A stretch of DNA of 64,000 nucleotides, from the sequence record OK040907. One strand, given 5' to 3'. Numbering within the stretch: position 1 is the first letter of the stretch; each line of letters begins with the position of its first letter. The notes below the pieces were generated by a model. It searched no databases, was not told where the DNA came from, and worked only from the letters and a program-made list of their open reading frames with translations. Origin of the DNA: Enterobacteria phage Ac3. Positions 1,667-62,744 of this stretch are shown piece after piece. Made by a program: the position numbers and the translations under genes.

Positions 1667-2950
1667 ATGGCTAAAATCAACGAACTTCTGCGCGAATCAA
1701 CCACAACGAATAGCAACTCAATCGGTCGCCCAAATCTCGTTGCTTTGACTCGCGCTACCACTAAATTAATATATTCTGACATTGTAGCAACGCAAAGAAC
1801 TAATCAACCTGTTGCTGCTTTTTATGGTATCAAATACCTTAACCCAGACAACGAATTTACATTTAAAACTGGTGCTACTTATGCTGGCGAAGCTGGATAT
1901 GTAGACCGAGAACAAATCACAGAATTAACAGAAGAGTCTAAATTAACTCTCAATAAAGGCGATTTATTCAAATATAATAATATCGTTTATAAAGTATTAG
2001 AAGATACACCATTTGCTGATATTGAAGAAAGTGATTTAGAATTAGCTCTTCAGATTGCAATTGTTCTTTTAAAGGTTCGTCTATTTTCTGACGCGGCGTC
2101 AACAAGCAAATTTGAAAGCTCTGATAGTGAAATTGCGGATGCTAGATTCCAGATTAATAAATGGCAAACCGCAGTTAAATCTCGTAAACTTAAAACTGGT
2201 ATCACAGTTGAATTAGCACAAGATTTAGAAGCAAATGGATTCGATGCTCCTAATTTCTTGGAAGATTTGCTTGCAACTGAAATGGCAGATGAAATCAATA
2301 AAGATATTCTGCAGTCTTTGATTACAGTATCAAAACGTTATAAAGTTACAGGAATTACTGATACTGGATTCATTGATTTGAGTTATGCATCTGCACCTGA
2401 AGCTGGTCGTTCATTATACCGAATGGTATGTGAAATGGTTTCGCATATCCAAAAAGAATCAACTTATACAGCAACGTTCTGTGTTGCTTCAGCTCGTGCC
2501 GCTGCGATTCTTGCTGCATCAGGTTGGTTAAAACATAAACCAGAAGATGATAAGTATCTTTCACAAAATGCCTACGGGTTCTTAGCTAATGGTTTACCGC
2601 TTTATTGCGATACTAACAGCCCATTAGATTATGTAATCGTTGGCGTAGTAGAAAATATCGGTGAAAAAGAAATTGTTGGATCAATTTTCTATGCTCCGTA
2701 TACAGAAGGTCTCGACTTAGATGACCCTGAACATGTAGGTGCATTTAAAGTTGTTGTTGATCCAGAAAGCTTGCAACCGTCTATCGGTTTATTAGTTAGA
2801 TATGCTTTATCTGCAAATCCTTATACTGTAGCAAAAGATGAAAAAGAAGCAAGAGTAATTGACGGTGGAGACATGGATAAAATGGCGGGTCGTTCAGATT
2901 TGTCTGTTTTATTAGGTGTTAAATTACCAAAAATTATTATCGATGAATAA
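1667..2950 (+). CDS. 24: capsid vertex protein gp24
   Basis: 427-aa ORF paralogous to gp23 region; length equals T4 gp24; directly downstream of gene 23. Confidence 0.93.
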   Translation: MAKINELLRESTTTNSNSIGRPNLVALTRATTKLIYSDIVATQRTNQPVAAFYGIKYLNPDNEFTFKTGATYAGEAGYVDREQITELTEESKLTLNKGDLFKYNNIVYKVLEDTPFADIEESDLELALQIAIVLLKVRLFSDAASTSKFESSDSEIADARFQINKWQTAVKSRKLKTGITVELAQDLEANGFDAPNFLEDLLATEMADEINKDILQSLITVSKRYKVTGITDTGFIDLSYASAPEAGRSLYRMVCEMVSHIQKESTYTATFCVASARAAAILAASGWLKHKPEDDKYLSQNAYGFLANGLPLYCDTNSPLDYVIVGVVENIGEKEIVGSIFYAPYTEGLDLDDPEHVGAFKVVVDPESLQPSIGLLVRYALSANPYTVAKDEKEARVIDGGDMDKMAGRSDLSVLLGVKLPKIIIDE

Positions 2951-2981: not shown

Positions 2982-3984
2982 AGCTCACCAACTCAATCCA
3001 AGCTGGACGAAGTACATCTTGCACCATTTTAACTAATTCCTTTTTAATCAAAGAAGGATTATCTGCTTGAGTTAGAGTAATACCTTCACGAGAAGTTTCT
3101 TCCAAAATATCTTGGACAGTTAGCCCCATCACCTTTCCAAAATCCTTTGGACCAATTTCGCCAATTTTAGAAATAACGTTATTTACTCGGTTCAGTGTAA
3201 CGTAACAAGCTAAAATTCCCACCAATTTGTTATCAGCTTCTGACAATTCAACTTTAGCTTTAATAGGCTTATCAGACTTTTTCTTTTCACTAAATTTAGA
3301 ATTCTTGCATTTGATGGCTACACGATTGCGATTAGGCAGCCAAGAAGGATAACAAGGTTTCAATACATATCCTTCAGCGGTAAATACTTCGCCTTTGGCT
3401 TCGGCATTCCAAACGCATTTATTTGCATCAACTAATCCAGCATGGTCTACTGTAAAATTATAATCTTGGACGACAGAATCTAAATCATTTGGCAATTTAA
3501 TAAGCTCTTCAAATTTACCGCGGCCTAAAAGTGGAGCGATTTTAAACCCAAATGAATTACAAAATGATTCCATCATATAATCATCGACATAAGTCACATC
3601 GCCACTTTCTGTAGTGACAATAATGTCAAATACATAAAAATCTTTATCGCCATAATCAACATTCTTCTGAATGCCAGGTCCAGCGAATTCGCCAAAAACT
3701 TGATAAGATACAACCGCTGAAATTTCCATAATATCTTGTACTGCTTTAATGGAATCAGCGTAATTCTTTAGAATAATTTCATACCCAAAGAAATCTTCAG
3801 CAGGAAGAATCGGTCCAGTACGTTTAGCGCAAGTTACTTTATCACGCTCAATAATCAATGAGAAATTTGTGCCGTGAATCTTTTCACGAGCTACCCATTC
3901 GCCGCCAGTCAATCCCAAGCTATAAAGTTTTTCAATAAATTTAGAGTTGTAATGATTTTCAAGACTGCTATACTTTTTAAACAT
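2980..3984 (-). CDS. rnlB: RNA ligase 2
   Basis: 334-aa ORF; KIHGTN adenylyltransferase motif I (KxHGxN); length equals T4 Rnl2. Confidence 0.9.
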
Positions 3985-3993
3985 AATTAATCC

Positions 3994-4275
3994 TTAAAAT
4001 GTAATTTCTAACCAATCACCATCACGCTGATCACTATTGACTTTAAAATTAAATCCTTCTTTTCTCAGCCAATCACCAATTTCTTCAGTAATCAATTTAT
4101 CACGAGCAGTACAATAATAACTAAAATATGTTTTACCTTGTTCAGCTGCTTTATTAGCAAGTTCTGAAAAATCTTTAATAAAACACTCTAGCTTAAACTG
4201 TTTACTTTTTAATGCTTTTTCACGTAATTGATTAGCAAAAGATTCATTTTCATAAAGATTACACAGTGCCGTTTT
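3994..4275 (-). pseudogene. ATG-less 93-codon AT-rich open frame (possible 5'-disrupted small gene or non-canonical start)
   Basis: open frame with T4-like codon usage (…ELANKAAEQGKTYFSYYCTARDKLITEEIGDWLRKEGFNFKVNSDQRDGDWLEITF) but no in-frame ATG/GTG; begins immediately after a TGA inside the 3' end of the adjacent GC-rich ORF. Confidence 0.3.
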
Positions 4276-4474
4276 TCACCTTTTTGTTGATGTGACGTTT
4301 GCGGTAAACCACTTTTTCGCGGGTTTCGAACTTGTTTTTAGCGGTCATGGCACGTGCCCACAGAACGGCAACTTCTTTGGCCTGCAGGTTCAGTTCACGA
4401 GCAATTTCGATGAAGCTTTTACCGGATTCGTGCAGGGTGAACACTACAACCTCGGTGCGCATAATCAATCTCAT
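4259..4474 (-). CDS. small GC-rich ORF, predicted helix-turn-helix protein with basic C-terminal tail
   Basis: 71-codon ORF (alternative start at second ATG, 4462); ESGKSFIEIARELNLQAKEVAVLW resembles a transposase/regulator-type HTH; composition clearly more G+C-rich than flanks. Confidence 0.5.
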   Translation of the reverse strand: MRLIMRTEVVVFTLHESGKSFIEIARELNLQAKEVAVLWARAMTAKNKFETREKVVYRKRHINKKVKNGTV

Positions 4475-4535
4475 GTTATCGAGTTGGTGCCATTATATAC
4501 ATCATTTTCTGATTGTGTTTTGTGTGCTTTCAAAA

Positions 4536-4556
4536 TGAAAAAGGGGCCGAAGCCCC
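4536..4556 (-). terminator. hairpin GGGGC-TTCG-GCCCC plus T-run after hoc
   Basis: perfect stem-loop on minus strand followed by TTTTTC. Confidence 0.6.
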
Positions 4557-4562
4557 TTTCGA

Positions 4563-5693
4563 TTATGGATAAGTATAGATGATACCAGTTTCTAAAGCAG
4601 TTTTATGGATGATGTATCCATTACGTGATTCTTGAACATCAACTTCTGGATAATCTTTCATCATCTTCTGAAGCGTATAACGATGCAAGTAGTACTTACT
4701 ATCTGGATCTTCAGTTTTCCAATCTTTACCTTCTTCAGTCATTTTTTGGATTTCATCCATAACCCACCAACCGCACCAGATGTAAGCTGAAGTACGATGT
4801 GGAAGAGGATGAACATAAGGTAATTCACCTTCCGGTTCTGGAGCAACTTTATCAGTTACCTGAACTTGACCCGTCGTTTTAACTGTTTTACTATCATAAT
4901 CAGTTGCAGTAACAACTACAGTAACTTCAATAGTTTGACTTCCAATAGATGAGGTATCAACTGTATATACATTAGTTGACCCTTCTACAGGAGAAGAATC
5001 TTTCTTCCATGAATACTCAATTTGCGCTTCTTCTGGAGCATCAGTGACATTAGCGGTAAATGTAGCTGAAGCATCTTGCTGAACGTTAATAGAAGGAGGA
5101 GTCAATGTAACCTGTGGATTCATTGTCTTCTTATTAACTGTTAATGATACTTCATTAGAAGTAACTTCCTTTTCATTGTAATTTTCTGCTGTTACTTGGG
5201 CTACGCATTTAATTCTTTTTACTCCACTTGTAGTTGGAGTATAGCTAAATGTAGAGTTAGTTTCTCCACCAACTTGAGAATCATCTACATACCATTTATA
5301 TGTAGCAGACGCTCCATCAGGTTGAGAAGCTAAGGCAGCAGTAAATTGAACTGGGGTTCCAATTACTCCAGCAGCGGGACTATTGGGAGTTACTGCCAAT
5401 GTAGTTGTCTGAGTTTTGTTTTTGACTGTGATAGTTGTAGTAGCTTCTGCTGTTTCAGCTTCAGATTCTGGAACTGTATTTGTTGCAACAACTTTAATAG
5501 TCTTTTGACCAGCAGGACCTTTTAATACATAATCAAAAGTTGCTTCAGACCCATCTTGTGGAGCATTATCTACACTCCAAGCATAAGTAATAGTTCCACC
5601 TCCAGTTTCACCACTGGGTGCAGCAGTAAACTGCTTGGTTTCATCAATAACCCCTGTCGGTGTTTTAGGAGTTATATCAACTGTAAAAGCCAT
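4563..5693 (-). CDS. hoc: highly immunogenic outer capsid protein Hoc
   Basis: 376-aa ORF, same length as T4 Hoc; T/S/V-rich Ig-like repeat composition; position between rnlB and inh. Confidence 0.88.
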   Translation of the reverse strand: MAFTVDITPKTPTGVIDETKQFTAAPSGETGGGTITYAWSVDNAPQDGSEATFDYVLKGPAGQKTIKVVATNTVPESEAETAEATTTITVKNKTQTTTLAVTPNSPAAGVIGTPVQFTAALASQPDGASATYKWYVDDSQVGGETNSTFSYTPTTSGVKRIKCVAQVTAENYNEKEVTSNEVSLTVNKKTMNPQVTLTPPSINVQQDASATFTANVTDAPEEAQIEYSWKKDSSPVEGSTNVYTVDTSSIGSQTIEVTVVVTATDYDSKTVKTTGQVQVTDKVAPEPEGELPYVHPLPHRTSAYIWCGWWVMDEIQKMTEEGKDWKTEDPDSKYYLHRYTLQKMMKDYPEVDVQESRNGYIIHKTALETGIIYTYP

Positions 5694-10279: not shown

Positions 10280-10305
10280 ATTTAGCTCCTTTATTTATCA
10301 TATCT

Positions 10306-19010: not shown

Positions 19011-21107
19011 TTATCCTTGAACGAACTTGTAAGGCATGTTTGTAATATCTATGCAAGACGCAATAATTCCAAGAGATGATTCTACTTTCTGTTTAACGTT
19101 TGATGAAACAAATGATGCAAAGTCAACTCTGTCTTCTATTTCAGTATCACCTGTCATTGCAACTACTTCACCGGTTTCCATTAAATGGTCTCCGTCATAG
19201 ATTACCGATTCGGTGAGCTCTTCCGTGGTCATAACTTCAGCTTGAATGAGTTTTGTATTATTAGATGTTGTTCCGTCATTATTAGAAGCATCAGTTATTT
19301 TATTAACTTTGACCATCAATCCACGCGGTAGAATAACTTCAGCTTCTGTTGCTATTCCGAGACTTCCTGGATATACAACATTAACTTTATGAGCTCCATC
19401 AATTGCCCATCCTATTTGAACTTTAACGTATTCAGGATTTTCTTTATACGCTCTTATTTCGTTTGGATTAATAGTTATTCCTTCTTCATTTTTATCAACT
19501 GTTAATTCATTGCGAGCTTCTGGTTCTAAAAGACCAATACCAGCATGTGTGATTCCAAAACGTCCAAAAATGATAGGAGTTAAAGAAGTAGATACAAAAT
19601 TTCTGAAGTAGAACACTTTATTTTTAACTAACGCTTCATATATAGGAGCAGTCATACTTTGAGCACGATAAACTGTAATGCCTTCTGGTATACGGTCACC
19701 ATTTTCAAAAGCTGAATCTAAGTTATTTATAGCAGATTCAATTTCTTTTTCACTCATTACATCATATCGTTCTGGATTGTAACGACCTAAAAGAAGATTA
19801 TTGATGTCAGTATATCCTGAACCACAATATTCTCTAATGCCACGCTTTTGTGATGGAGTATATTTAGAACCATCGCGGGCAATAGTAATATCAATCATTG
19901 GACCAGCACCAATTCCAGAAAAACTGTAAATCATTCGTTTGAGGAATTTAGTTTTTGCTGCGTTCCAGGAATTTTTAGTTATTTCTTCCCAGACTTCATC
20001 TGGTTGTCCTTTACGATTTTTATTATGATTAGCAAGCCATTTATCTTTATAATCTTCAAAGAATTGATTTACAGCTGCTGCGTATTTCTCTAAACATTTT
20101 ATTGAAGTAGTTGGTTCATTTTTAATTGCATTAAAAATTACTTCTTTAATTTTTTCTGAAACTTCACCGACTTGACTCATTGGAAAGAATTTATAATCAT
20201 AGTGAAGTTCATCTGCCGTTCCTTCAGCAATAATTTTTGCTGCCTTTGTTTTAGAAGCTAATGAATTAATTCCAATTTTCATTTCTTCTGCTTCGGGAAT
20301 TAAAGGTGCAGTAGCTGGTTTATTAAAATTAGCTGCTGTAGATTCATACTTCTGGAATAATTCACTTTCAAATCTAGAAGATTCCAATGACTGACTTTGT
20401 GCAATTGCTCTACGGGAAATTTTAACTTTAACGATTACGGCTTGGTCAGAACGTTTATCATTTTCTTGTGCAATAGATGCAGCAATTGCCTCATTTTTGG
20501 TTACTTGAGCTCCAGTATCTTTATTGATATAAACATCACCGACCTTCGATTCAACTTTAGTAAAGAGCTCGGTGCTAATTTCTGGAACTCCTGGAATGTC
20601 TTCTAGTGATACATTTTTACGATGTATAAGAATATATGCATACTTTTTATCGTAATCCCAGAGTTCCTTAAGAAGGACGTATCTGCCACCTGAACGACTG
20701 CGGATGAGTCTATCAGCAATAAGTTGAATTTGTCGAGCTTGACCTGCGGTTTTAGACTTAAGAATACGAAGCATGCAGGCATCAATTTTATATTGACGCA
20801 TTGTTTGCATTGCAACAGTAAAAACTGAATTGATATAATTAATCGGGCTTGGACCAAGACCTTTTAATTTAGCAATTGAACCTTTAGCAGTTAATGTAAA
20901 AGGAACAATATGCATCATTTTATCGCCCATCTTTAAATCACGATTAGTATCACCTCCAGATGTATAGGTACATAAACGAAAGCCTGGTTGTTCAATTGCA
21001 TCATCAACATGAACTGAAAAAATTTGTGGTATTTTCTTCTTTGGATTTAAGTTTGTAATCGGAAGAGTAGTATCTTCGTCAAATAATTCTGTAATGAGTT
21101 CCATCAT
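19011..21107 (-). CDS. alt: Alt-like ADP-ribosyltransferase, paralog 1
   Basis: 698-aa ORF; N-terminus MMELITELFDEDTTLPITNLNPKKKIPQIF; motifs YRAQ, FVSTS, EAEVILPRG; late promoter upstream; adjacent to gene 30 as T4 alt. Confidence 0.88.
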   Translation of the reverse strand: MMELITELFDEDTTLPITNLNPKKKIPQIFSVHVDDAIEQPGFRLCTYTSGGDTNRDLKMGDKMMHIVPFTLTAKGSIAKLKGLGPSPINYINSVFTVAMQTMRQYKIDACMLRILKSKTAGQARQIQLIADRLIRSRSGGRYVLLKELWDYDKKYAYILIHRKNVSLEDIPGVPEISTELFTKVESKVGDVYINKDTGAQVTKNEAIAASIAQENDKRSDQAVIVKVKISRRAIAQSQSLESSRFESELFQKYESTAANFNKPATAPLIPEAEEMKIGINSLASKTKAAKIIAEGTADELHYDYKFFPMSQVGEVSEKIKEVIFNAIKNEPTTSIKCLEKYAAAVNQFFEDYKDKWLANHNKNRKGQPDEVWEEITKNSWNAAKTKFLKRMIYSFSGIGAGPMIDITIARDGSKYTPSQKRGIREYCGSGYTDINNLLLGRYNPERYDVMSEKEIESAINNLDSAFENGDRIPEGITVYRAQSMTAPIYEALVKNKVFYFRNFVSTSLTPIIFGRFGITHAGIGLLEPEARNELTVDKNEEGITINPNEIRAYKENPEYVKVQIGWAIDGAHKVNVVYPGSLGIATEAEVILPRGLMVKVNKITDASNNDGTTSNNTKLIQAEVMTTEELTESVIYDGDHLMETGEVVAMTGDTEIEDRVDFASFVSSNVKQKVESSLGIIASCIDITNMPYKFVQG

Positions 21108-29405: not shown

Positions 29406-30795
<1,390 letters not shown>

Positions 30796-30799
<4 letters not shown>

Positions 30800-40179: not shown

Positions 40180-40539
40180 TTATATTATCTCCCATCGAAA
40201 AGGGTCAGGAGCATATCCGATAGAGTTAATCATTTTAACTAAAGTTACCATTCCTTTGTTAACTGCTTGTGCGATTTCATCAAAAACTTCATCGCTATCA
40301 TCATAAAGGTCATTAAAAAGTTCTAACACGTTCTTCTGAACTTTTAATTTATGACCAACAATCTCGCCTACAGTAAATTCGTTTCCGCCGATTCCAGTGT
40401 AAAACGTAATTACACCAGTTAACAGACTTTCGCGAGAATCTAGGTCATGTGATAAATTAATATAAGCCATCCCGGGTGCAGTTTTAAGTTGGCAACGAAT
40501 TCTTACTTGGGTAATTCCGGTTACATGAATGTCGGACAT
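40180..40539 (-). CDS. hypothetical protein (frd.x-like)
   Basis: ORF track 40180..40680; start moved to MSDIHVTG (119 aa) preceded by AAGGAAAA; upstream part of the track ORF overlaps the neighbouring GC-rich gene out of frame. Confidence 0.55.
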   Translation of the reverse strand: MSDIHVTGITQVRIRCQLKTAPGMAYINLSHDLDSRESLLTGVITFYTGIGGNEFTVGEIVGHKLKVQKNVLELFNDLYDDSDEVFDEIAQAVNKGMVTLVKMINSIGYAPDPFRWEII

Positions 40540-40549
40540 ATTATTTTCC

Positions 40550-40789
40550 TTAAGCTTTCTTGGCAACTTTCCAGTCAGCTTTGAACTGATCGACGTCGCT
40601 GTGATGGATCCAGAAGCCGGAGCTGGAACCGTCTTCATAGAGTGGGCAACCGTCACATTCATCTTCCCAACCCATATCACGCAGGAGATGTTCTGCCTTT
40701 TCGATCAGCTCGGAATCTTTACCAATGATGTTGAAGTACCATTTGCCGCGTACTTCAGAGTCTTTAATGGACTGACGCTGCAGACGCAT
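40550..40789 (-). CDS. small GC-rich early protein with CxxC-like pair
   Basis: ORF track 40550..40879 (TTG start); real start taken as ATG at 40789 preceded by GAGGAG and an early promoter; 79 aa, E. coli-like codons. Confidence 0.55.
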   Translation of the reverse strand: MRLQRQSIKDSEVRGKWYFNIIGKDSELIEKAEHLLRDMGWEDECDGCPLYEDGSSSGFWIHHSDVDQFKADWKVAKKA

Positions 40790-41496: not shown

Positions 41497-41542
41497 TTTG
41501 ATTTCCTCATTTTAACGGGGCTATCAAATAGCCCCTTGATAA

Positions 41543-41773
41543 TTACTGTTCGATGAGACCCATGTAGAATTCCGCATCTTCGGAGTCCATACCGTCGCAG
41601 TATTCGTTAGCCATGAAGCGGGTCAGGTCCTCCAGTGGACCCTCAATAACAATGCTAAAGTTACAATAGTTCGGGTCATCATGGATGGAAGTAATAGACA
41701 GCTCCGGGTAACGGTTGCGGATAATTTCCTCGATGTATTCGAAATCAACGATGTCGATGTCTACTTTAGCCAT
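41543..41773 (-). CDS. small GC-rich acidic early protein
   Basis: ORF track 41543..41836; start moved to MAKVDIDIV (76 aa) preceded by AAGAGGAA and an early promoter. Confidence 0.55.
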
Positions 41774-41816
41774 ATTATTTTCCTCTTTGATCATCAGCAG
41801 TATTGCCGATAGTTGT

Positions 41817-41846
41817 ATAGTACCATGGAAGGACAAGGATGTAAAC
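41817..41846 (-). promoter_or_regulatory. T4-type early promoter (GTTTAC, 18-nt spacer, TACTAT)
   Basis: minus strand GTTTACatccttgtccttccatggTACTATAcaactatc; adjacent to the gene 32 terminator hairpin. Confidence 0.65.
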
Positions 41847-41871
41847 AGTTTTGTGAAAAAATTTTTGAAAT

Positions 41872-41896
41872 AAAAAAGGGGACCTCTAGGGTCCCC
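41872..41896 (-). terminator. gene 32 terminator hairpin GGGGACCC-TAGAG-GGTCCCC plus T-run
   Basis: perfect stem on minus strand followed by TTTTTT immediately after the gene 32 stop. Confidence 0.65.
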
Positions 41897-41919: not shown

Positions 41920-42828
41920 TTACAGGTCGTTCAGGAGGTCATCCAGGTCGGTATCGTCGGCGCTGGAAGAGGAGCCGCTAGAGGAAGACATGAAGTCATC
42001 TTCGGTTTTAGTGTTAAAATCGTCAACGTTAAAGGCGTCCAGGTCATCCGCTACCTTATCGGCTTTCTTAGCCGCAGTAGCCGCAGCACCGCCCATCACA
42101 GCAGTGCCCATAACCTGACCGAACTTGGTGTTGAGTTCCTCAAAAGATTTAAATTTATCTTTGGAGGTCATCTCAGACAGATCTACCATCTGCTCAAACA
42201 GTTCTTTTTGGAAAGATTCGTCATCGATGTTCGGGATAGCAGACTGGTTCAGAAATTTGCTCTCGTCGTAATTGGAGAAACCAGAAACCTGTTTAACCTT
42301 CAGAACGAAGTTGGCACCCTCCCACGGGCAGGTGACGTCGACCGGGGTTTCACCCATCTCCACGTCCACCGCAATCATAGCGTTAATTTTATCCCAGATT
42401 TTCTTACCAAAGCGGTATTTGAAAACCTTACCCTCGTTTTCTGGCGCAGCTGGATCCTTTACAACCAGGATGTTAGCCCAGTAAGAGGTTTTACGTTTCA
42501 CCAGGCCGTATTCTTTATTGTCGGTATTATACAGATCGTTTTTGGAAATGTACTGACACACCGGGCAAGAGTCGTAGTCGCCGTGGGTGGAAGAACAGTT
42601 TTCGATGTACCATTTGCCGTTTTTCTTAAAACCGTGGTTCACCAGGATAGCGAACGGAGCCTGTTCGTCATTTTTGCTCGGCAGGAAGCGGATCACCGCC
42701 TGACCGTTGCCCGCGTTGTCCAGTTTCAGTTTCCATTCGCCTTTGTCCTCAGAGCTGAAGCCACCTTTGTTGCCCGCCAGCTTGGCCATCTGCGCAGCCA
42801 GTTCTGCCGTGCTCTTACGCTTGAACAT
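41920..42828 (-). CDS. 32: single-stranded DNA-binding protein gp32
   Basis: 302-aa ORF; N-terminus [17 protein letters not shown]; zinc-ligand region [12 protein letters not shown]; acidic Ser/Asp-rich C-terminus. Confidence 0.95.
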
Positions 42829-50914: not shown

Positions 50915-53900
50915 ATGGCTACTTTAAAACAAATACAATTTAAAAGAAGCAAAACCGCAGGAGCACGTCCTGCCGCTTCAGTATTAGCCGAAGGTGAATT
51001 GGCTATAAACTTAAAAGACCGTGTACTTTTTACTAAAGATGACCAAGGAAATATTATTGATCTGGGTTTTGCTAAGGGCGGTAGTATTGACGGGAATGTT
51101 ATTCATATAGGAAACTATAACCAAACTGGTGATTATACTTTAAATGGCGCATTAACTCAGACAGGTAATTTTAATTTAACTGGTATTGCTCGAGTAACTC
51201 GCGATATTATTGCCGCTGGGCAGATTATGACTGAAGGCGGAGAACTTATTACAAAAAGTTCAGGTACAGCGCATGTTCGTTTTTTCGATGGCAATAGTCG
51301 CGAACGCGGAATCATTTATGCCCCGGCTAATGATGGTTTAACTACACAAGTACTTAATATCAGGGTTCAAGACTATGCCGCTGGTAGCGAAACGACTTAT
51401 CGATTTTCAGGCAGTGGCCTATTTACTTCACCTGAAGTATCAGCATGGAAATCTATTTCGTCTCCACAAATTCTGACCGATAAAGTTATTACAAATGGGA
51501 AGAAGACAGGCGATTATGATATCTATTCATTATCAAATAACACTCCAATGGCAGAAGGCGAAACGGCTATTAACCACCTCCGTGTTATGCGAAATGCTGT
51601 AGGAGCAGGTATTTTCCACGAAGTTAATGTTAATGACGGAATAACCTGGTATTCCGGACATGGCTTAGACACTTATCTTTGGTCGTTTAACTGGGCCGGT
51701 GGATTGAAAGCTGGTCATTCTATTGCTGTGGCCTTCCTCACGGTTCTAAAATTATTCAGAAATGGGCACGGCTTCTATTGCTTTAGGAGAGTAGATGATA
51801 CCGGATTTAAATGGCATCAGGATGGATATTATTTCAGCGTTAATAATGGAACAAAAACATTTTTATTTAGTCCTAGTGAAACAACTAGCCTAAGAAAATT
51901 TGTAGCTGGATATTCTACTAACGGAACCGATTTAACGACTCCTCCAACTGAAAACTATGCTCTTGCTACTGTCGTGACATATCACGATAATAACGCGTTT
52001 GGAGATGGTCAGACTCTTTTAGGATATTATCAAGGCGGTAATTATCATCACTATTTCCGCGGTAAAGGTACTACAAACATTAATACTCACGGCGGTTTGT
52101 TAGTTATTACTCCCGGTAATGTAGATGTGGTCGGCGGCATGGTTACCATTGATGGTAAAAATTATGCTTCTAGTGTGCTTTTTAAAGGAAATACTACAGG
52201 ATATAGTTCAGTTGATAATATAGAGCTCAAAGTTTGGGGTGACACTTTTAATACAGTAGGTGGTACTCGTAAAAACGTAATGGAAACATCTGATGCTACT
52301 GGCTGGATGCATTATATTCAACGAACTACAGCAGGTAAAGTTGAGTCCTATTTAAATGGTACCATGAATGTAAATGAAAGCATCAACGTCAGTAAAGAAG
52401 TTAACGCCTCTGGCACTATTGCTAGTAATGCTGTCAATGCGCTTCGCATTTGGAATGCAGATTATGGAGCTATTTTTAGACGTTCAGAAGGAAGTCTTCA
52501 TATTATTCCAACTGCTTATGGTGAAGGCAAAAATGGTGATATCGGTCCACTTCGCCCGTTTAGTATGGCTTTAGATACCGGTAAAGTTACTATTCCAGAT
52601 TTACAATCAAGTTACAATACGTTCGCTGCGAACGGCTATATTAAATTTGTTGGTCATGGAGCGGGTGCCGGCGGTTATGACATTCAATATGCTCAAGCGG
52701 CTCCTATTTTCCAGGAAATTGATGGATGCTGTAAGCAAATATTTATCCCTATTGTTAAACAGAAGTTTTTAAATGGTAAAGCCGTTTGGTCTTTAGGTAC
52801 TGAAATTAATTCTGGTACATTTGTTTTACATCATCTGAAAGAAGATGGACACAAGGTCATACATCAAGATTTAATGCTGACGGTACAGTTAATTTCCCTG
52901 ATAACGTTCAAGTCGGTGGTGGTGAAGCTACTATTGCTCGTAATGGTAATATTTTCTCGGATATTTGGAAACTGTTTACTTCTGCTGGAGACACTACAAA
53001 TATTCGGTGATGCAATAGCTACTCGTGTTGCTAAAGAAGGTGATACGATGACCGGTAGGTTGACTTTATCAGCTGGAAATGATGCACTTGTTTTAACTGC
53101 AGGCGTGGGTGCTTCATCACACATCCGTAGTGATGTAGGTGGTATAGGTAACTGGTATATAGGCAAAGGCGGCGGCGACAATGGTCTAGGTTTTTACAGT
53201 TACATTACACAAGGCGGTGTATACATAACAAATAACGGCGAAATAGCGCTTTCTCCTCAAGGTCAAGGAACATTTAATTTTAATAGGGATCGCCTTTATA
53301 TAAATGCTAGTCAATGGGTTGCACATAAATCTGGCGCTTGGGGTGACCAATGGGGCTTAGAAGCTCCTGTATTTGTGGATTTTGGTAGTGTCGGTAATGA
53401 TAGTTATTATCCTATTATTAAAGGAAAATCTGTTATTACGAATGAAGGATACATATCTGGCGTTGATTTTGGTATGCGTCGCATTACTAATACATGGGCA
53501 CAAGGTATTATTCGTGTAGGTAACCAGGAAAACGGTTCTGACCCACAAGCTATCTATGAATTCCACCACAATGGAGTTATGTATGTTCCTAACATGGTTA
53601 AAACCGGAGCAAGATTATCGGCTGGCGGTGGTGACCCGGTGTGGACTGGACCATGTCTTGTTATTGGTGATAATGTATCCGGATTAGTTCATGGTGGTGA
53701 TGGGCGAATTAACATGGTTGCAAATGGAGCGCATATTGCTTCGTGGTCTTCATCTTATCATTCTCATCCTGGCCTTTGGGATTCAAACGGTGCTTTGTGG
53801 ACGGAAGTTGGCAAAGCAGTTATTTCTCATGGTCATTTAGTTCAGGCGAATGACAACTATTCAACATATGTCCGCGATGTTTATGTCCGCTCTGATATTC

Positions 53901-54226
53901 GTGTTAAAAAGAACCTCGTTAAATTTGAAAATGCTTCTGAGAAGCTTTCTAAAATTAACGGTTACACTTATATGCAGAAACGTGGAACAGATGAAGAAGG
54001 TAATCAGAAATGGGAACCTAACGCAGGTTTGATAGCTCAAGAAGTTCAAGATATTTTACCAGAATTCGTTGAAGGTGACCCGGATGGTGAAGCTTTACTT
54101 CGTTTGAACTATAACGGTGTAATTGGTTTAAATACAGCTGCAATCAATGAGCATACTGCAGAAATTGCAGAACTTAAGTCAGAGATTGAAGAGCTTAAAA
54201 AATTAGTTAAATCATTGTTAAAATAA
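50915..54226 (+). CDS. 37: long tail fibre distal subunit gp37 (T2-type, C-terminal intramolecular-chaperone-like domain)
   Basis: 1103-aa ORF; DTMTGRL repeat; C-terminal SDIRVKKNL…[15 protein letters not shown]…coiled coil resembles autoproteolytic chaperone domains; internal segment 52810..53010 looks frame-shifted (see findings). Confidence 0.88.
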
Positions 54227-54231
54227 TAAGA

Positions 54232-54245
54232 GGGGCTTCGGCCCC
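54232..54245 (+). other. stem-loop GGGGC-TTCG-GCCCC between genes 37 and 38
   Basis: perfect 5-bp stem with TTCG loop; no strong T-run, so probably an RNA structure rather than a terminator. Confidence 0.4.
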
Positions 54246-54257
54246 TTGGAGGTTTAT

Positions 54258-55031
54258 ATGGCAGTTGAAGGACCGTGGGTAGGATGGTCTGCGAGGGTAC
54301 AGACTGGAGATCCTTGGATGGGTGGTGCCGCGCAGAGATTGAGAATGGGAATTCCGTTTTGGATGAGTAATATGATAGGTCGATCTGTTGAAATAATTCA
54401 CACGCTTGGAGCAGACCATAACTTCAATGGTCAATGGTTCCGAGATAGATGTTTTGAGGCAGGTAGTACACCTATAGTGTTTAATATCACTGGAGATTTA
54501 GTATCATATTCTAAAGATGTTCCTTTATTCTTCATGTACGGAGATACACCGAATGAATATGTTCAGTTGAATATACACGGCGTAGCGATGTATGGCCGTG
54601 GCGGTAATGGCGGTAGCAATAGTCCTGGTTCAGCTGGAGGTCATTGTATTCAAAACGATATTGGTGGGAGACTAAGAATTAATAATGGCGGAGCTATTGC
54701 AGGCGGTGGCGGCGGTGGCGGTGGCGGTAACAGGGGTCGACTAGTATTTGGTGGTGGCGGTGGTCGCCCATTCGGTAGTGGCGGGTCTTCCCTCTCTCAC
54801 ATGAGTGCTGGTGCAACCGCCGGCACCATTTACGCTCCGGGTGCAGGATCTGTCGGTGAGGGGTCTCTTAGTGCATATACAGGCGGGTCTGGTGGTGAAG
54901 TTGGCTCCGCAGGAGGTAGAAATACTCACGGTACCGGTACAGAATATGACGGCGGAGCTGCTGGTTATGCTGTTATAGGGTCGTCTCCAACGTGGATAAA
55001 TGTTGGAGCAATATATGGTCCAAGAGTATAA
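54258..55031 (+). CDS. 38: receptor-recognising adhesin gp38 (T2-type, glycine-rich motifs)
   Basis: ORF track starts at 54246; ATG at 54258 follows GGAGG; conserved N-terminal half then poly-Gly blocks ([25 protein letters not shown]) typical of T2/K3-type gp38 adhesins. Confidence 0.85.
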
Positions 55032-58461: not shown

Positions 58462-58502
58462 TTTCTAATCTCCGTAATTCTGTATCAGTAGTTGATAGTT
58501 GT

Positions 58503-58532
58503 ATAATACCACAGTATGCTTTGGTTGTAAAC
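58503..58532 (-). promoter_or_regulatory. T4-type early promoter (GTTTAC, 18-nt spacer, TATTAT) for motA
   Basis: minus strand GTTTACaaccaaagcatactgtggTATTATAcaactatcaact; preceded by an A/T-rich tract and a terminator hairpin. Confidence 0.65.
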
Positions 58533-58558
58533 CGGTTTGTGAAAAAAATTTTTGAAAT

Positions 58559-58585
58559 AAAAAAAGGGAGAGCCGAGGCTCTCCC
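58559..58585 (-). terminator. hairpin GGGAGAGCC-TCGG-CTCTCCC plus T-run
   Basis: perfect 8-bp stem on minus strand followed by TTTTTTT. Confidence 0.65.
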
Positions 58586-61842: not shown

Positions 61843-62106
61843 TCACAGCTCAATTTCAGCGATTTTCATTTCATTGCTGTTGATTGCTTCCTTCAGAGAA
61901 TCGGACAGAATGACGTTCCAATGATCGTTCATATGACCGTTCACCAGACGGGTGATTTCCTCCGGGGTGGAGAAGTACGGCTGATCAGATTCCCAGTGAG
62001 ACAGACCCAGACGGGTATAGATCATACCTTCGTCATCAGAGGAGTATTCTACGCTGACGAATTCATCAGTGATTTTGTGTTTTGCATAGTAGAATTTAAA
62101 CTTCAT
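61843..62106 (-). CDS. small GC-rich early protein
   Basis: ORF track 61843..62205; start moved to MKFKFYYAKHK (87 aa) downstream of an early promoter; CGT/CTG/CCG codons. Confidence 0.55.
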   Translation of the reverse strand: MKFKFYYAKHKITDEFVSVEYSSDDEGMIYTRLGLSHWESDQPYFSTPEEITRLVNGHMNDHWNVILSDSLKEAINSNEMKIAEIEL

Positions 62107-62140
62107 TTTACTCTCCAAATCCGTATCAGTTGATAGTTGT

Positions 62141-62170
62141 ATAGTACCACGGTCCTTGTGGTATGTAAAC
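62141..62170 (-). promoter_or_regulatory. T4-type early promoter (GTTTAC, 18-nt spacer, TACTAT)
   Basis: minus strand GTTTACataccacaaggaccgtggTACTATAcaactatcaact. Confidence 0.65.
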
Positions 62171-62186
62171 TGTTTTGTGAAATTTT

Positions 62187-62744
62187 TTAAATGGAAAGAT
62201 ACCATCCGTTGTAGTTGCTTTTTCTTACAACCTTACGAAGGTCTTCTCTGTCACCGATGAACTTCGGAGTGTACTGGATGACACCTGGATGAATTTCTTT
62301 AGTGTTGAATATAATTATACAGTCAGCGACTTGATGATTTAGAATGGGCCCTAGATTTATTCCAGAACCATATGGATACTCTCCGCTGCATCCTGTTGTT
62401 ACCGAAATCCAACGTGAGTCAGTTTGATGTGTCTTAACTTCTACACGAAGCCCGCAGTATTTTGGATGCGCCAATACATCCCATGCATATGTGTACGGAT
62501 CATCGACATCTTCTTGGCCTTTATTGACATATCCGCTTAGCCAATCTGCCACAAAAAACTCTGCGTACACAGCAATACGACATCTTTCGATAACTTCTGC
62601 CTTATCCTGATTTGGGTTCTGTTTTAAAGAGTATCTTGCAGTATCAGCAATTTTGACCTTCATTTCATTGGTTAAATCGCTGTTCGATAGAGTAAATGTC
62701 GGAATCTGAAATAGTCTCTGTAACCCAGGATTCGTTTTCTGCAT
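62187..62744 (-). CDS. denB: endonuclease IV
   Basis: 185-aa ORF (T4 DenB length) in the denB position between ndd cluster and rIIB. Confidence 0.65.
   Translation of the reverse strand: MQKTNPGLQRLFQIPTFTLSNSDLTNEMKVKIADTARYSLKQNPNQDKAEVIERCRIAVYAEFFVADWLSGYVNKGQEDVDDPYTYAWDVLAHPKYCGLRVEVKTHQTDSRWISVTTGCSGEYPYGSGINLGPILNHQVADCIIIFNTKEIHPGVIQYTPKFIGDREDLRKVVRKSNYNGWYLSI

Follow-up and report, generated by a model that had tools for sequence, protein, structure and literature searches.

A conserved frd.3 locus behind gene 32 in a phage Ac3 record, with six coding sequences very probably codon-optimised by design

We analysed a stretch of 64,000 nucleotides (the window; position 1 is its first letter) from sequence record OK040907 of Enterobacteria phage Ac3, and in particular the region around positions 41,543 to 41,896, where gene 32, which encodes the single-stranded-DNA-binding protein gp32, is followed by a terminator hairpin, an early promoter and the small gene frd.3. 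A sequence-only reading of this region had described a hairpin, a promoter and a G+C-rich, acidic open reading frame (ORF) of 76 codons, and had likened the whole to the mobile promoter-early-stem-loop (PeSL) cassettes that accompany shuffled accessory genes in T4-type phages. The locus has the standard T-even arrangement, in which the terminator of gene 32 is followed by an early promoter and the conserved gene frd.3, and the terminator, the promoter, the PeSL family and the frd.3 family have all been described already. What sets the window apart is a set of six coding sequences (CDSs), frd.3 among them, that have very probably undergone designed codon optimisation in the style of Escherichia coli, as opposed to the arrival of a foreign gene. 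Coordinates of all features are collected in Table 1.

Directly behind gene 32, on the minus strand like every other element of this locus, lies the stem-loop GGGGACC-CTAGA-GGTCCCC (41878..41896), with a predicted folding energy of -14.3 kcal/mol, followed immediately by six Ts (41872..41877). Its 7-bp stem with six G-C pairs and the adjoining T-run have the make-up of an intrinsic terminator, and we take this hairpin to be the well-known T4 gene 32 terminator that is reused in cloning cassettes. The predicted early promoter consists of (G)TTTACA as the -35 element (41840..41846), a 17-nucleotide spacer that ends in TGG (the TGn element) and TACTAT as the -10 element (41817..41822). Both the hairpin with its T-run (41872..41896) and the promoter were found where the sequence-only reading had placed them. 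The distance from the hairpin to the -35 element is 31 nucleotides, and the 30 nucleotides upstream of the latter are 87% A+T. Transcription would start at an A close to position 41810, giving a 5' untranslated region (UTR) with the Shine-Dalgarno sequence GAGG at 41782..41785; the stretch AAAGAGGAAAATAATATG at 41771..41788 comprises this site and the ATG of frd.3. The record of phage fPS-90 (LR215723) labels the same hairpin as a terminator and the same promoter as a 'predicted early promoter', the hairpin and the frd.3 5' UTR of T4 are the same as those of the window, and the whole 146-bp spacer between gene 32 and frd.3 is 100% identical to RB68 and RB51.

T4 early promoters are of the 'uber' UP/-35/TGn/-10 type with extra consensus regions (Hinton 2010, PMC2988021), and the frd.3 promoter has all four recognition elements as well as the conserved start region ACAACTATC; it departs from that type in its -10 element, TACTAT rather than TATAAT, and is otherwise unexceptional. 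The T4 frd.3 mRNA is reported to be among the most abundant T4 transcripts capped with nicotinamide adenine dinucleotide (bioRxiv 10.1101/2024.04.04.588121), which would be compatible with a strong promoter that starts at an A. The loop of the terminator was found inverted in two inspected relatives (about 2875..2895 of their contigs), which have GGGGACC-TCTAG-GGTCCCC where the window and T4 have the CTAGA loop; hairpin-mediated template switching would produce a change of this type.

The product of frd.3 matches the Pfam family PF05798 over its full length (residues 1-76 aligned to positions 1-75 of the 75-position profile; E = 6.3e-38; 129.6 bits against a cut-off of 28.1) and also falls in a PHROG family of unknown function. 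Homologues are present in 732 phage records, while gp32 at an identity of at least 80% is present in 705. Gene 32 and frd.3 are colinear in 470 of the 490 matching Tequatrovirus records, the intergenic unit is kept at the locus in 482 records, and the order gene 32, frd.3, frd.2 was seen in all six public contigs inspected. The very Frd3 protein of the window occurs at an identity of at least 99% in 129 records, and an identical Frd3 stands at the same position in 260 blocks of a public collection. These counts do not fit the shuffled accessory ORF that had been proposed. The sequence-only reading had itself held that universal conservation of the ORF at this position would speak against its proposal, and such conservation is what we found within Tequatrovirus, with shifts of position only between genera: two to three ORFs separate gene 32 from the frd.3 homologue in Dhakavirus and Gelderlandvirus, and in Mosigvirus about 94 kb lie between gene 32 and the homologue, which is part of the tRNA/internal-protein region. 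Where genes of the region really come and go is the frd.2-to-frd interval (about 3650..5000 of the six inspected contigs): some phages with an identical Frd3 carry, and others lack, small ORFs of 86 aa, 110/119 aa (DUF7247) and 113 aa there.

Position-by-position comparison identified the window as the last 64 kb of RB68/RB51-type records. The 2.4 kb surrounding the frd.3 locus match several hundred Tequatrovirus records, with RB68 and RB51 as the best; RB68 matches base for base over almost the whole window, and RB51 shows two additional single-base differences. Apart from small insertions or deletions relative to RB68 (6 nt where the window begins, 7 nt near 1677 and 1 nt at 10304), the departures from RB68 are confined to the genes 37/38 block and six short blocks with 21-27% mismatches. 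The genes 37/38 block, which differs from RB68 by 706 nucleotides and 260 amino acids, appears to be a natural swap of the tail-fibre/adhesin mosaic kind and is 99.9% identical to the 1998 phage Ac3 record (AF060870); the exact gp37 and gp38 proteins of the window had no match in a large protein collection.

Each of the six short blocks lies within a single annotated CDS, namely 24.3, RB32ORF217c, frd.1, frd.3, gene 32 and RB51ncORF272c. Together they carry 492 nucleotide changes in 427 of 717 codons, and not one amino-acid change. Gene 32 contributes 190 of these changes and encodes the gp32 of RB68 and RB51, and frd.3 contributes 51. The changes begin at codons 2-4 and reach the last sense codon or the stop codon, with flanks that are 100% identical to the natural sequence; in RB51ncORF272c they span 61846..62101, in agreement with the RB51-style gene start at 62106. 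The G+C content at third codon positions (GC3) of the six CDSs rises from 0.25-0.29 in the native versions to 0.49-0.62 (0.29 to 0.62 in gene 32), making them extreme outliers for both GC3 and rare codons among the 88 putative genes of the window. The G+C-richness of the frd.3 ORF, 45.9% against 34.2% in the native version, with a GC3 of 0.60 against 0.25 in RB68 and a window median of 0.247, was correctly noticed. As a signal of foreign origin it does not hold: the excess ends exactly where the CDS ends and involves synonymous changes only, and the ORF owes its G+C-rich look to a CDS rewritten with synonymous codons preferred by E. coli.

The direction of the rewriting is uniform. Of 17 codons that are rare in E. 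coli, 16 fall to zero in the six CDSs (AGA, CGA, CGG, ATA, CTA, CTT, TTA, TTG, GGA, GGG, CCC, CCT, TCA, TCG, AGT and ACA), and the remaining one, AGG, is absent from the native genes already; CTG, AAC, ATC, ACC, TCC, CGT/CGC and GGT/GGC rise or become dominant. Three of the four TGA stop codons are converted to TAA. There are also 28 serine switches between TCN and AGY codons and 21 codons in which all three bases are changed, and such serine switches and triple-base changes are unreachable through single synonymous steps. As a natural control, seven independent frd.3 genes that code for this very protein show 0-6 nt differences among themselves, with a GC3 of 0.21-0.26, and differ from the copy in the window by 51-52 nt. 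More generally, the T4 (NC_000866, 146575..146947), RB51 (FJ839693), RB68 (KM607004) and fPS-90 loci share with the window the gene order, hairpin, T-run, A/T-rich stretch, -35 and -10 elements, 5' UTR and Frd3 protein, whereas the coding DNA of frd.3 and gene 32 in the window is only about 78-79% identical to every natural version, with the protein unchanged. Across the frd.3-to-gene-32 region, the best phage record in a megablast search reached 81.7% identity. Recoded 44-45-mers from gene 32 and frd.3 had no exact match in viral contigs, and the gene 32 probe had none in genome and metagenome contigs.

Could such a pattern have arisen in nature, by selection for host-like codons or by gene conversion from a G+C-richer relative? 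gp32 is highly expressed, and codon adaptation of its gene would be conceivable in principle. The zero count of amino-acid changes among 492 substitutions, the flanks identical to RB68 and the 28 serine switches that have no path of single synonymous steps nevertheless lead us to reject natural codon adaptation or gene conversion. Natural divergence of comparable extent changes the protein, as in genes 37/38 or in Mosigvirus, whose gp32 has 90.8% protein identity; moreover, small hypothetical ORFs make up four of the six genes, stop codons have been standardised to TAA, and the recoded DNA is found in no natural sequence searched. We regard a natural origin as vanishingly improbable.

A second alternative is that the record is an assembly chimera, in which reads of codon-optimised expression constructs, for instance of recombinant gp32, were merged into the phage assembly. 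gp32 is commonly made as a recombinant protein, and the recoding does stop exactly at the CDS ends, both of which would favour such a mixture. Against it, six separate genes are hit, five of which are obscure small ORFs; the junctions with the native untranslated regions are seamless and bring no vector sequence with them; and a megablast search of PLSDB with the recoded gene 32 matched no plasmid. A chimera of this kind is extremely improbable.

We are left with designed codon optimisation of six CDSs within an otherwise known locus, a reading that we hold with high confidence. It accounts for synonymous changes bounded by CDSs, a shift to host-preferred codons and absence from the natural collections searched, and on the nucleotide sequence the recoding would be of artificial origin. 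The window genes resemble codon-optimised synthetic genes in that all changes are synonymous and CDS-bounded, rare codons are gone, six-fold families have been switched and stops set to TAA. They differ from such genes in standing in their native phage context and not in an expression vector, in that common restriction sites were not avoided, and in the destruction of an overlapping gene start. The new codon frequencies resemble, we presume, those obtained by sampling from a table of highly expressed E. coli genes with the rare codons excluded.

Several points weigh against this account of the locus. The agreement with the E. coli high-expression table is a presumed one and not the outcome of a computed index; a literature search returned no record of, or paper on, a recoded RB68/Ac3-type or T4-like phage; the activities of promoter and terminator are deduced from consensus matches, the annotation of others and the T4 literature; and the exchange of promoter spacers discussed below is built on an alignment of six sequences.

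The sequence alone is compatible with a recoding present in a physical engineered phage as well as with one present in the sequence file only. The window could come from a viable phage that was physically built and in which six genes were codon-optimised, among them gene 32, which is essential and autoregulated. A comparison of motifs found no loss of native late, middle or early promoter motifs inside the six genes. The destroyed gene start, the failure to avoid common restriction sites and a choice of genes that looks arbitrary would be expected more from blind editing of one gene after another than from careful engineering, although they prove nothing. The start in question is that of gene 24.2, which overlaps 24.3: the recoding of 24.3 (4259..4272, minus strand) turns its ATG into ACG. 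Because the 24.2 protein has no other methionine, the gene would lose its annotated start. Recoding has also left a 166-aa ORF (40180..40680, minus strand) that runs from RB51ncORF237c through the recoded frd.1 in an alternative frame; it is spurious, and probably arose as the G+C enrichment removed stop codons from that frame.

Table 1. Features of the gene 32-frd.3 locus and related features elsewhere in the window
Feature	Position	Strand	Basis or remark
Gene 32 CDS (gp32, single-stranded-DNA-binding protein), recoded	41920..42828	minus	annotated gene 32 in RB51
Gene 32 intrinsic terminator (predicted)	41872..41896	minus	terminator scan, RNA fold; stem-loop and T6
A/T-rich, UP-element-like stretch ATTTCAAAAATTTTTTCACAAAACT	41847..41871	minus	alignment; common to the motA, nrdC.10, e.8 and ncORF272c promoters
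Predicted sigma-70 early promoter of frd.3	41817..41846	minus	consensus scan and fPS-90 annotation
frd.3 5' UTR, beginning ACAACTATC	41774..41816	minus	sequence and alignment; start common to the promoter family
frd.3 CDS, 76 aa, recoded	41543..41773	minus	Pfam PF05798 Phage_FRD3
Stem-loop GGGGCTAT-TTG-ATAGCCCC directly past the frd.3 stop	41517..41535	minus	RNA fold -13.3 kcal/mol, z = -3.1
24.3 CDS, recoded	4259..4462	minus	53 nt / 0 aa differences; stop TGA to TAA
RB32ORF217c-type CDS, recoded	30497..30799	minus	80 nt / 0 aa differences; GC3 0.60 vs 0.25; stop TGA to TAA
frd.1 CDS, recoded	40550..40789	minus	54 nt / 0 aa differences; stop TGA to TAA
RB51ncORF272c CDS, recoded	61843..62106	minus	64 nt / 0 aa differences
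Sister unit upstream of motA	58502..58585	minus	T-run, matching A/T-rich stretch, GTTTAC-N18-TATTAT
Family promoter without hairpin, between denB and RB51ncORF272c	62140..62170	minus	near-identical to the frd.3 and motA promoters
Genes 37/38 block	50956..55028	plus	99.9% identity to 1998 phage Ac3 record (AF060870)

The intergenic unit in front of frd.3 belongs to a dispersed family. The pattern GTTTAC-N16-19-TAYWATA occurs six times in the window, each time on the minus strand, against a chance expectation of 0.09. The near-identity to the unit upstream of motA that the sequence-only reading had pointed out was upheld on formal alignment, with the exception of the hairpin stems and the spacer between the -35 and -10 elements: the two units are almost the same over the T-run, the A/T-rich stretch and the -35 element, and once more between the TGG and about +12, a span that includes the -10 element. 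Even with up to three mismatches allowed, the 21-mer TTTCAAAAATTTTTTCACAAA is found at these two sites alone, with 0.03 occurrences expected, and the hairpin of the motA unit, GGGAGAGCC-TCG-GCTCTCCC at 58566..58585, has a predicted energy of -19.9 kcal/mol (z = -5.9). The RB68 annotation runs an ORF (61843..62205) across the hairpin-less family promoter near denB (Table 1), which looks like an over-long gene call.

A scan of RB51 (164 kb) gave 29 TTTACW-N15-18-TAYWAT sites, of which 28 fall on the strand of the early genes. Complete units, with hairpin, T-run, ATTTCAAAAATTTTT(T)CACAAA, GTTTAC and TGGTAYTAT-ACAACTATC, precede frd.3, motA and nrdC.10 in that phage; e.8 and ncORF272c have the family promoter without a hairpin, and the units at soc and mobD.5 share the hairpin-promoter layout but are less alike in sequence. 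Across 548 records there were about 4.7 partial unit matches per genome. Conservation within the family is concentrated in the UP-like stretch, the -35 element, the TGn/-10 element and the start region, while the stems and usually the spacer diverge. The spacers form a patchwork. In T4 (1804..1948 of the compared piece) the frd.3 spacer, which differs from that of the window, is AAGCATAAAGCTTTATGG and equals the spacer of the nrdC.10 unit of RB51, whereas in RB51 and the window it is ATCCTTGTCCTTCCATGG, of which 15 of 18 positions agree with the e.8 promoter (RB51 units at 4524..4637 and 19777..19900 of the compared piece). This suggests recombination between dispersed units, of which such a patchwork would be the expected product and which is the mechanism proposed for PeSLs (PMC2839356, PMC4122927).

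PeSLs (Arbiol et al. 2010, PMC2839356; Comeau et al. 2014, PMC4122927) are cassettes that combine a terminator with an early promoter and are defined by a stem-loop, an A/T-rich stretch, a TTTACW-N17-TAYWAT promoter (in the T4/PST group), a Shine-Dalgarno sequence and an ATG (PMC4122927, PMC2839356). The frd.3 unit has a stable stem-loop before its own promoter, the A/T-rich stretch with TTTACA-N17-TACTAT, a Shine-Dalgarno sequence and ATG at its 3' end, and dispersed conserved copies. It shares with the described cassettes the order of elements, the several dispersed copies and the patchy exchange between copies, and differs from them in that the next gene is conserved throughout Tequatrovirus instead of being a variable ORFan, and that no second complete unit flanks it. 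As to exchange of the adjacent ORF among close relatives, frd.3 is fixed after gene 32 in 470-482 Tequatrovirus records, with variation between frd.2 and frd and between genera. From its sequence features, the unit would thus qualify anatomically as a PeSL, and the evidence does not indicate that it mobilised frd.3.

This bears directly on the proposal that a mobile PeSL cassette brought a G+C-rich foreign accessory gene to the position downstream of gene 32. The part of it that stands is the PeSL anatomy, the dispersed family and the spacer patchwork; the part that does not is the view of frd.3 as an accessory gene that was shuffled into this locus or is foreign to it. Mobility would fit the sister copies elsewhere, the spacer apparently exchanged between T4 and RB51, the position of the homologue in a different hyperplastic region in Mosigvirus, its separation from gene 32 by two to three ORFs in Dhakavirus and Gelderlandvirus, and the presence/absence variation of ORFs between frd.2 and frd. 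However, many phages have at the same position a native Frd3 that is 100% identical to this protein, native frd.3 genes have a GC3 of only 0.21-0.26, and the G+C excess is purely synonymous, ends at the CDS limits and is common to gene 32 and four unrelated genes. The downstream flank of frd.3 is a bare stem-loop, not a second promoter unit; this stem-loop lacks a T-run and stands just before the ribosome-binding site and GTG start codon of frd.2, and it could serve RNA stability or processing, or be what is left of a half-PeSL. The native-identical protein and the all-synonymous changes lead us to reject horizontal transfer of a G+C-rich gene, and we consider the proposal as a whole very improbable. 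The frd.3 promoter unit could be a PeSL-type hotspot at which recombination is active, though this is unlikely.

With designed recoding of an otherwise standard locus as the preferred reading, the parts may be put together as follows. The gene 32 terminator would end the transcripts of the 33-59-32 cluster, and the strong sigma-70 early promoter of the UP/-35/TGn/-10 type that comes next, with its A/T-rich upstream element abutting the T-run of the terminator, would restart transcription into frd.3, frd.2, frd.1 and frd. The near-identity among dispersed units of the PeSL class would reflect selection on promoter function and occasional recombination between units. The product of frd.3 is a conserved, very acidic small protein of predicted alpha/beta fold that would be expressed early. 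On this natural background, the codons of six CDSs would have been swapped for synonyms typical of highly expressed E. coli genes, leaving the proteins and all intergenic DNA intact.

The acidic 76-aa ORF of the sequence-only reading was confirmed at 41543..41773 with exactly the protein sequence given there. Frd3 has an isoelectric point of 4.05, with 19 Asp and Glu residues against 4 Lys and Arg and a net charge of about -15. Its AlphaFold model, made from an alignment of 22 sequences, is a confident one: it has a predicted local distance difference test (pLDDT) score of 93 and a predicted template-modelling (pTM) score of 0.81, with a beta-alpha-beta-beta-alpha-alpha topology. A Foldseek search of BFVD matched only uncharacterised Frd3 proteins, with template-modelling (TM) scores of 0.84-0.95 to their models, and no functional analogue. 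A profile search found no relatives among PDB sequences, and Foldseek found no significant structural neighbours in the PDB, the best (E = 0.09, TM about 0.5) being generic two-layer alpha/beta folds. A RelB-like Pfam match (E = 0.058 over 18 residues) was discarded as noise. A full-text literature search on 'frd.3' returned no functional study.

On the basis of charge, timing and conservation, Frd3 may tentatively be viewed as an acidic protein, made early in infection, that binds or inhibits a basic protein of the host, a possibility that we consider real but rather doubtful. Frd3 is present in essentially all T-even-like phages of enterobacteria, and its predicted early promoter is of a very strong type. 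The more specific suggestion that it inhibits a host nucleic-acid-binding or defence protein, for example as a DNA mimic, is unlikely. T4 Arn and T7 Ocr are acidic phage proteins that mimic DNA, and Frd3 resembles them in being small, strongly negative and predicted to be expressed early; in the PDB searches, however, no solved structure resembled it significantly in sequence or in fold.

Taken together, the biological weight of the locus is small, since the terminator/early-promoter unit, the PeSL family and the frd.3 family had all been described before. The finding is chiefly one of caution: an island that resembles horizontal transfer is very probably an artefact of designed synonymous recoding. 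Compositional findings at 4259..4462, 30497..30799, 40550..40789, 41920..42828 and 61843..62106 share this cause. If the record does represent a real engineered phage, it would constitute a test of how well T-even phages tolerate host-optimised codons in an essential, translationally autoregulated gene.

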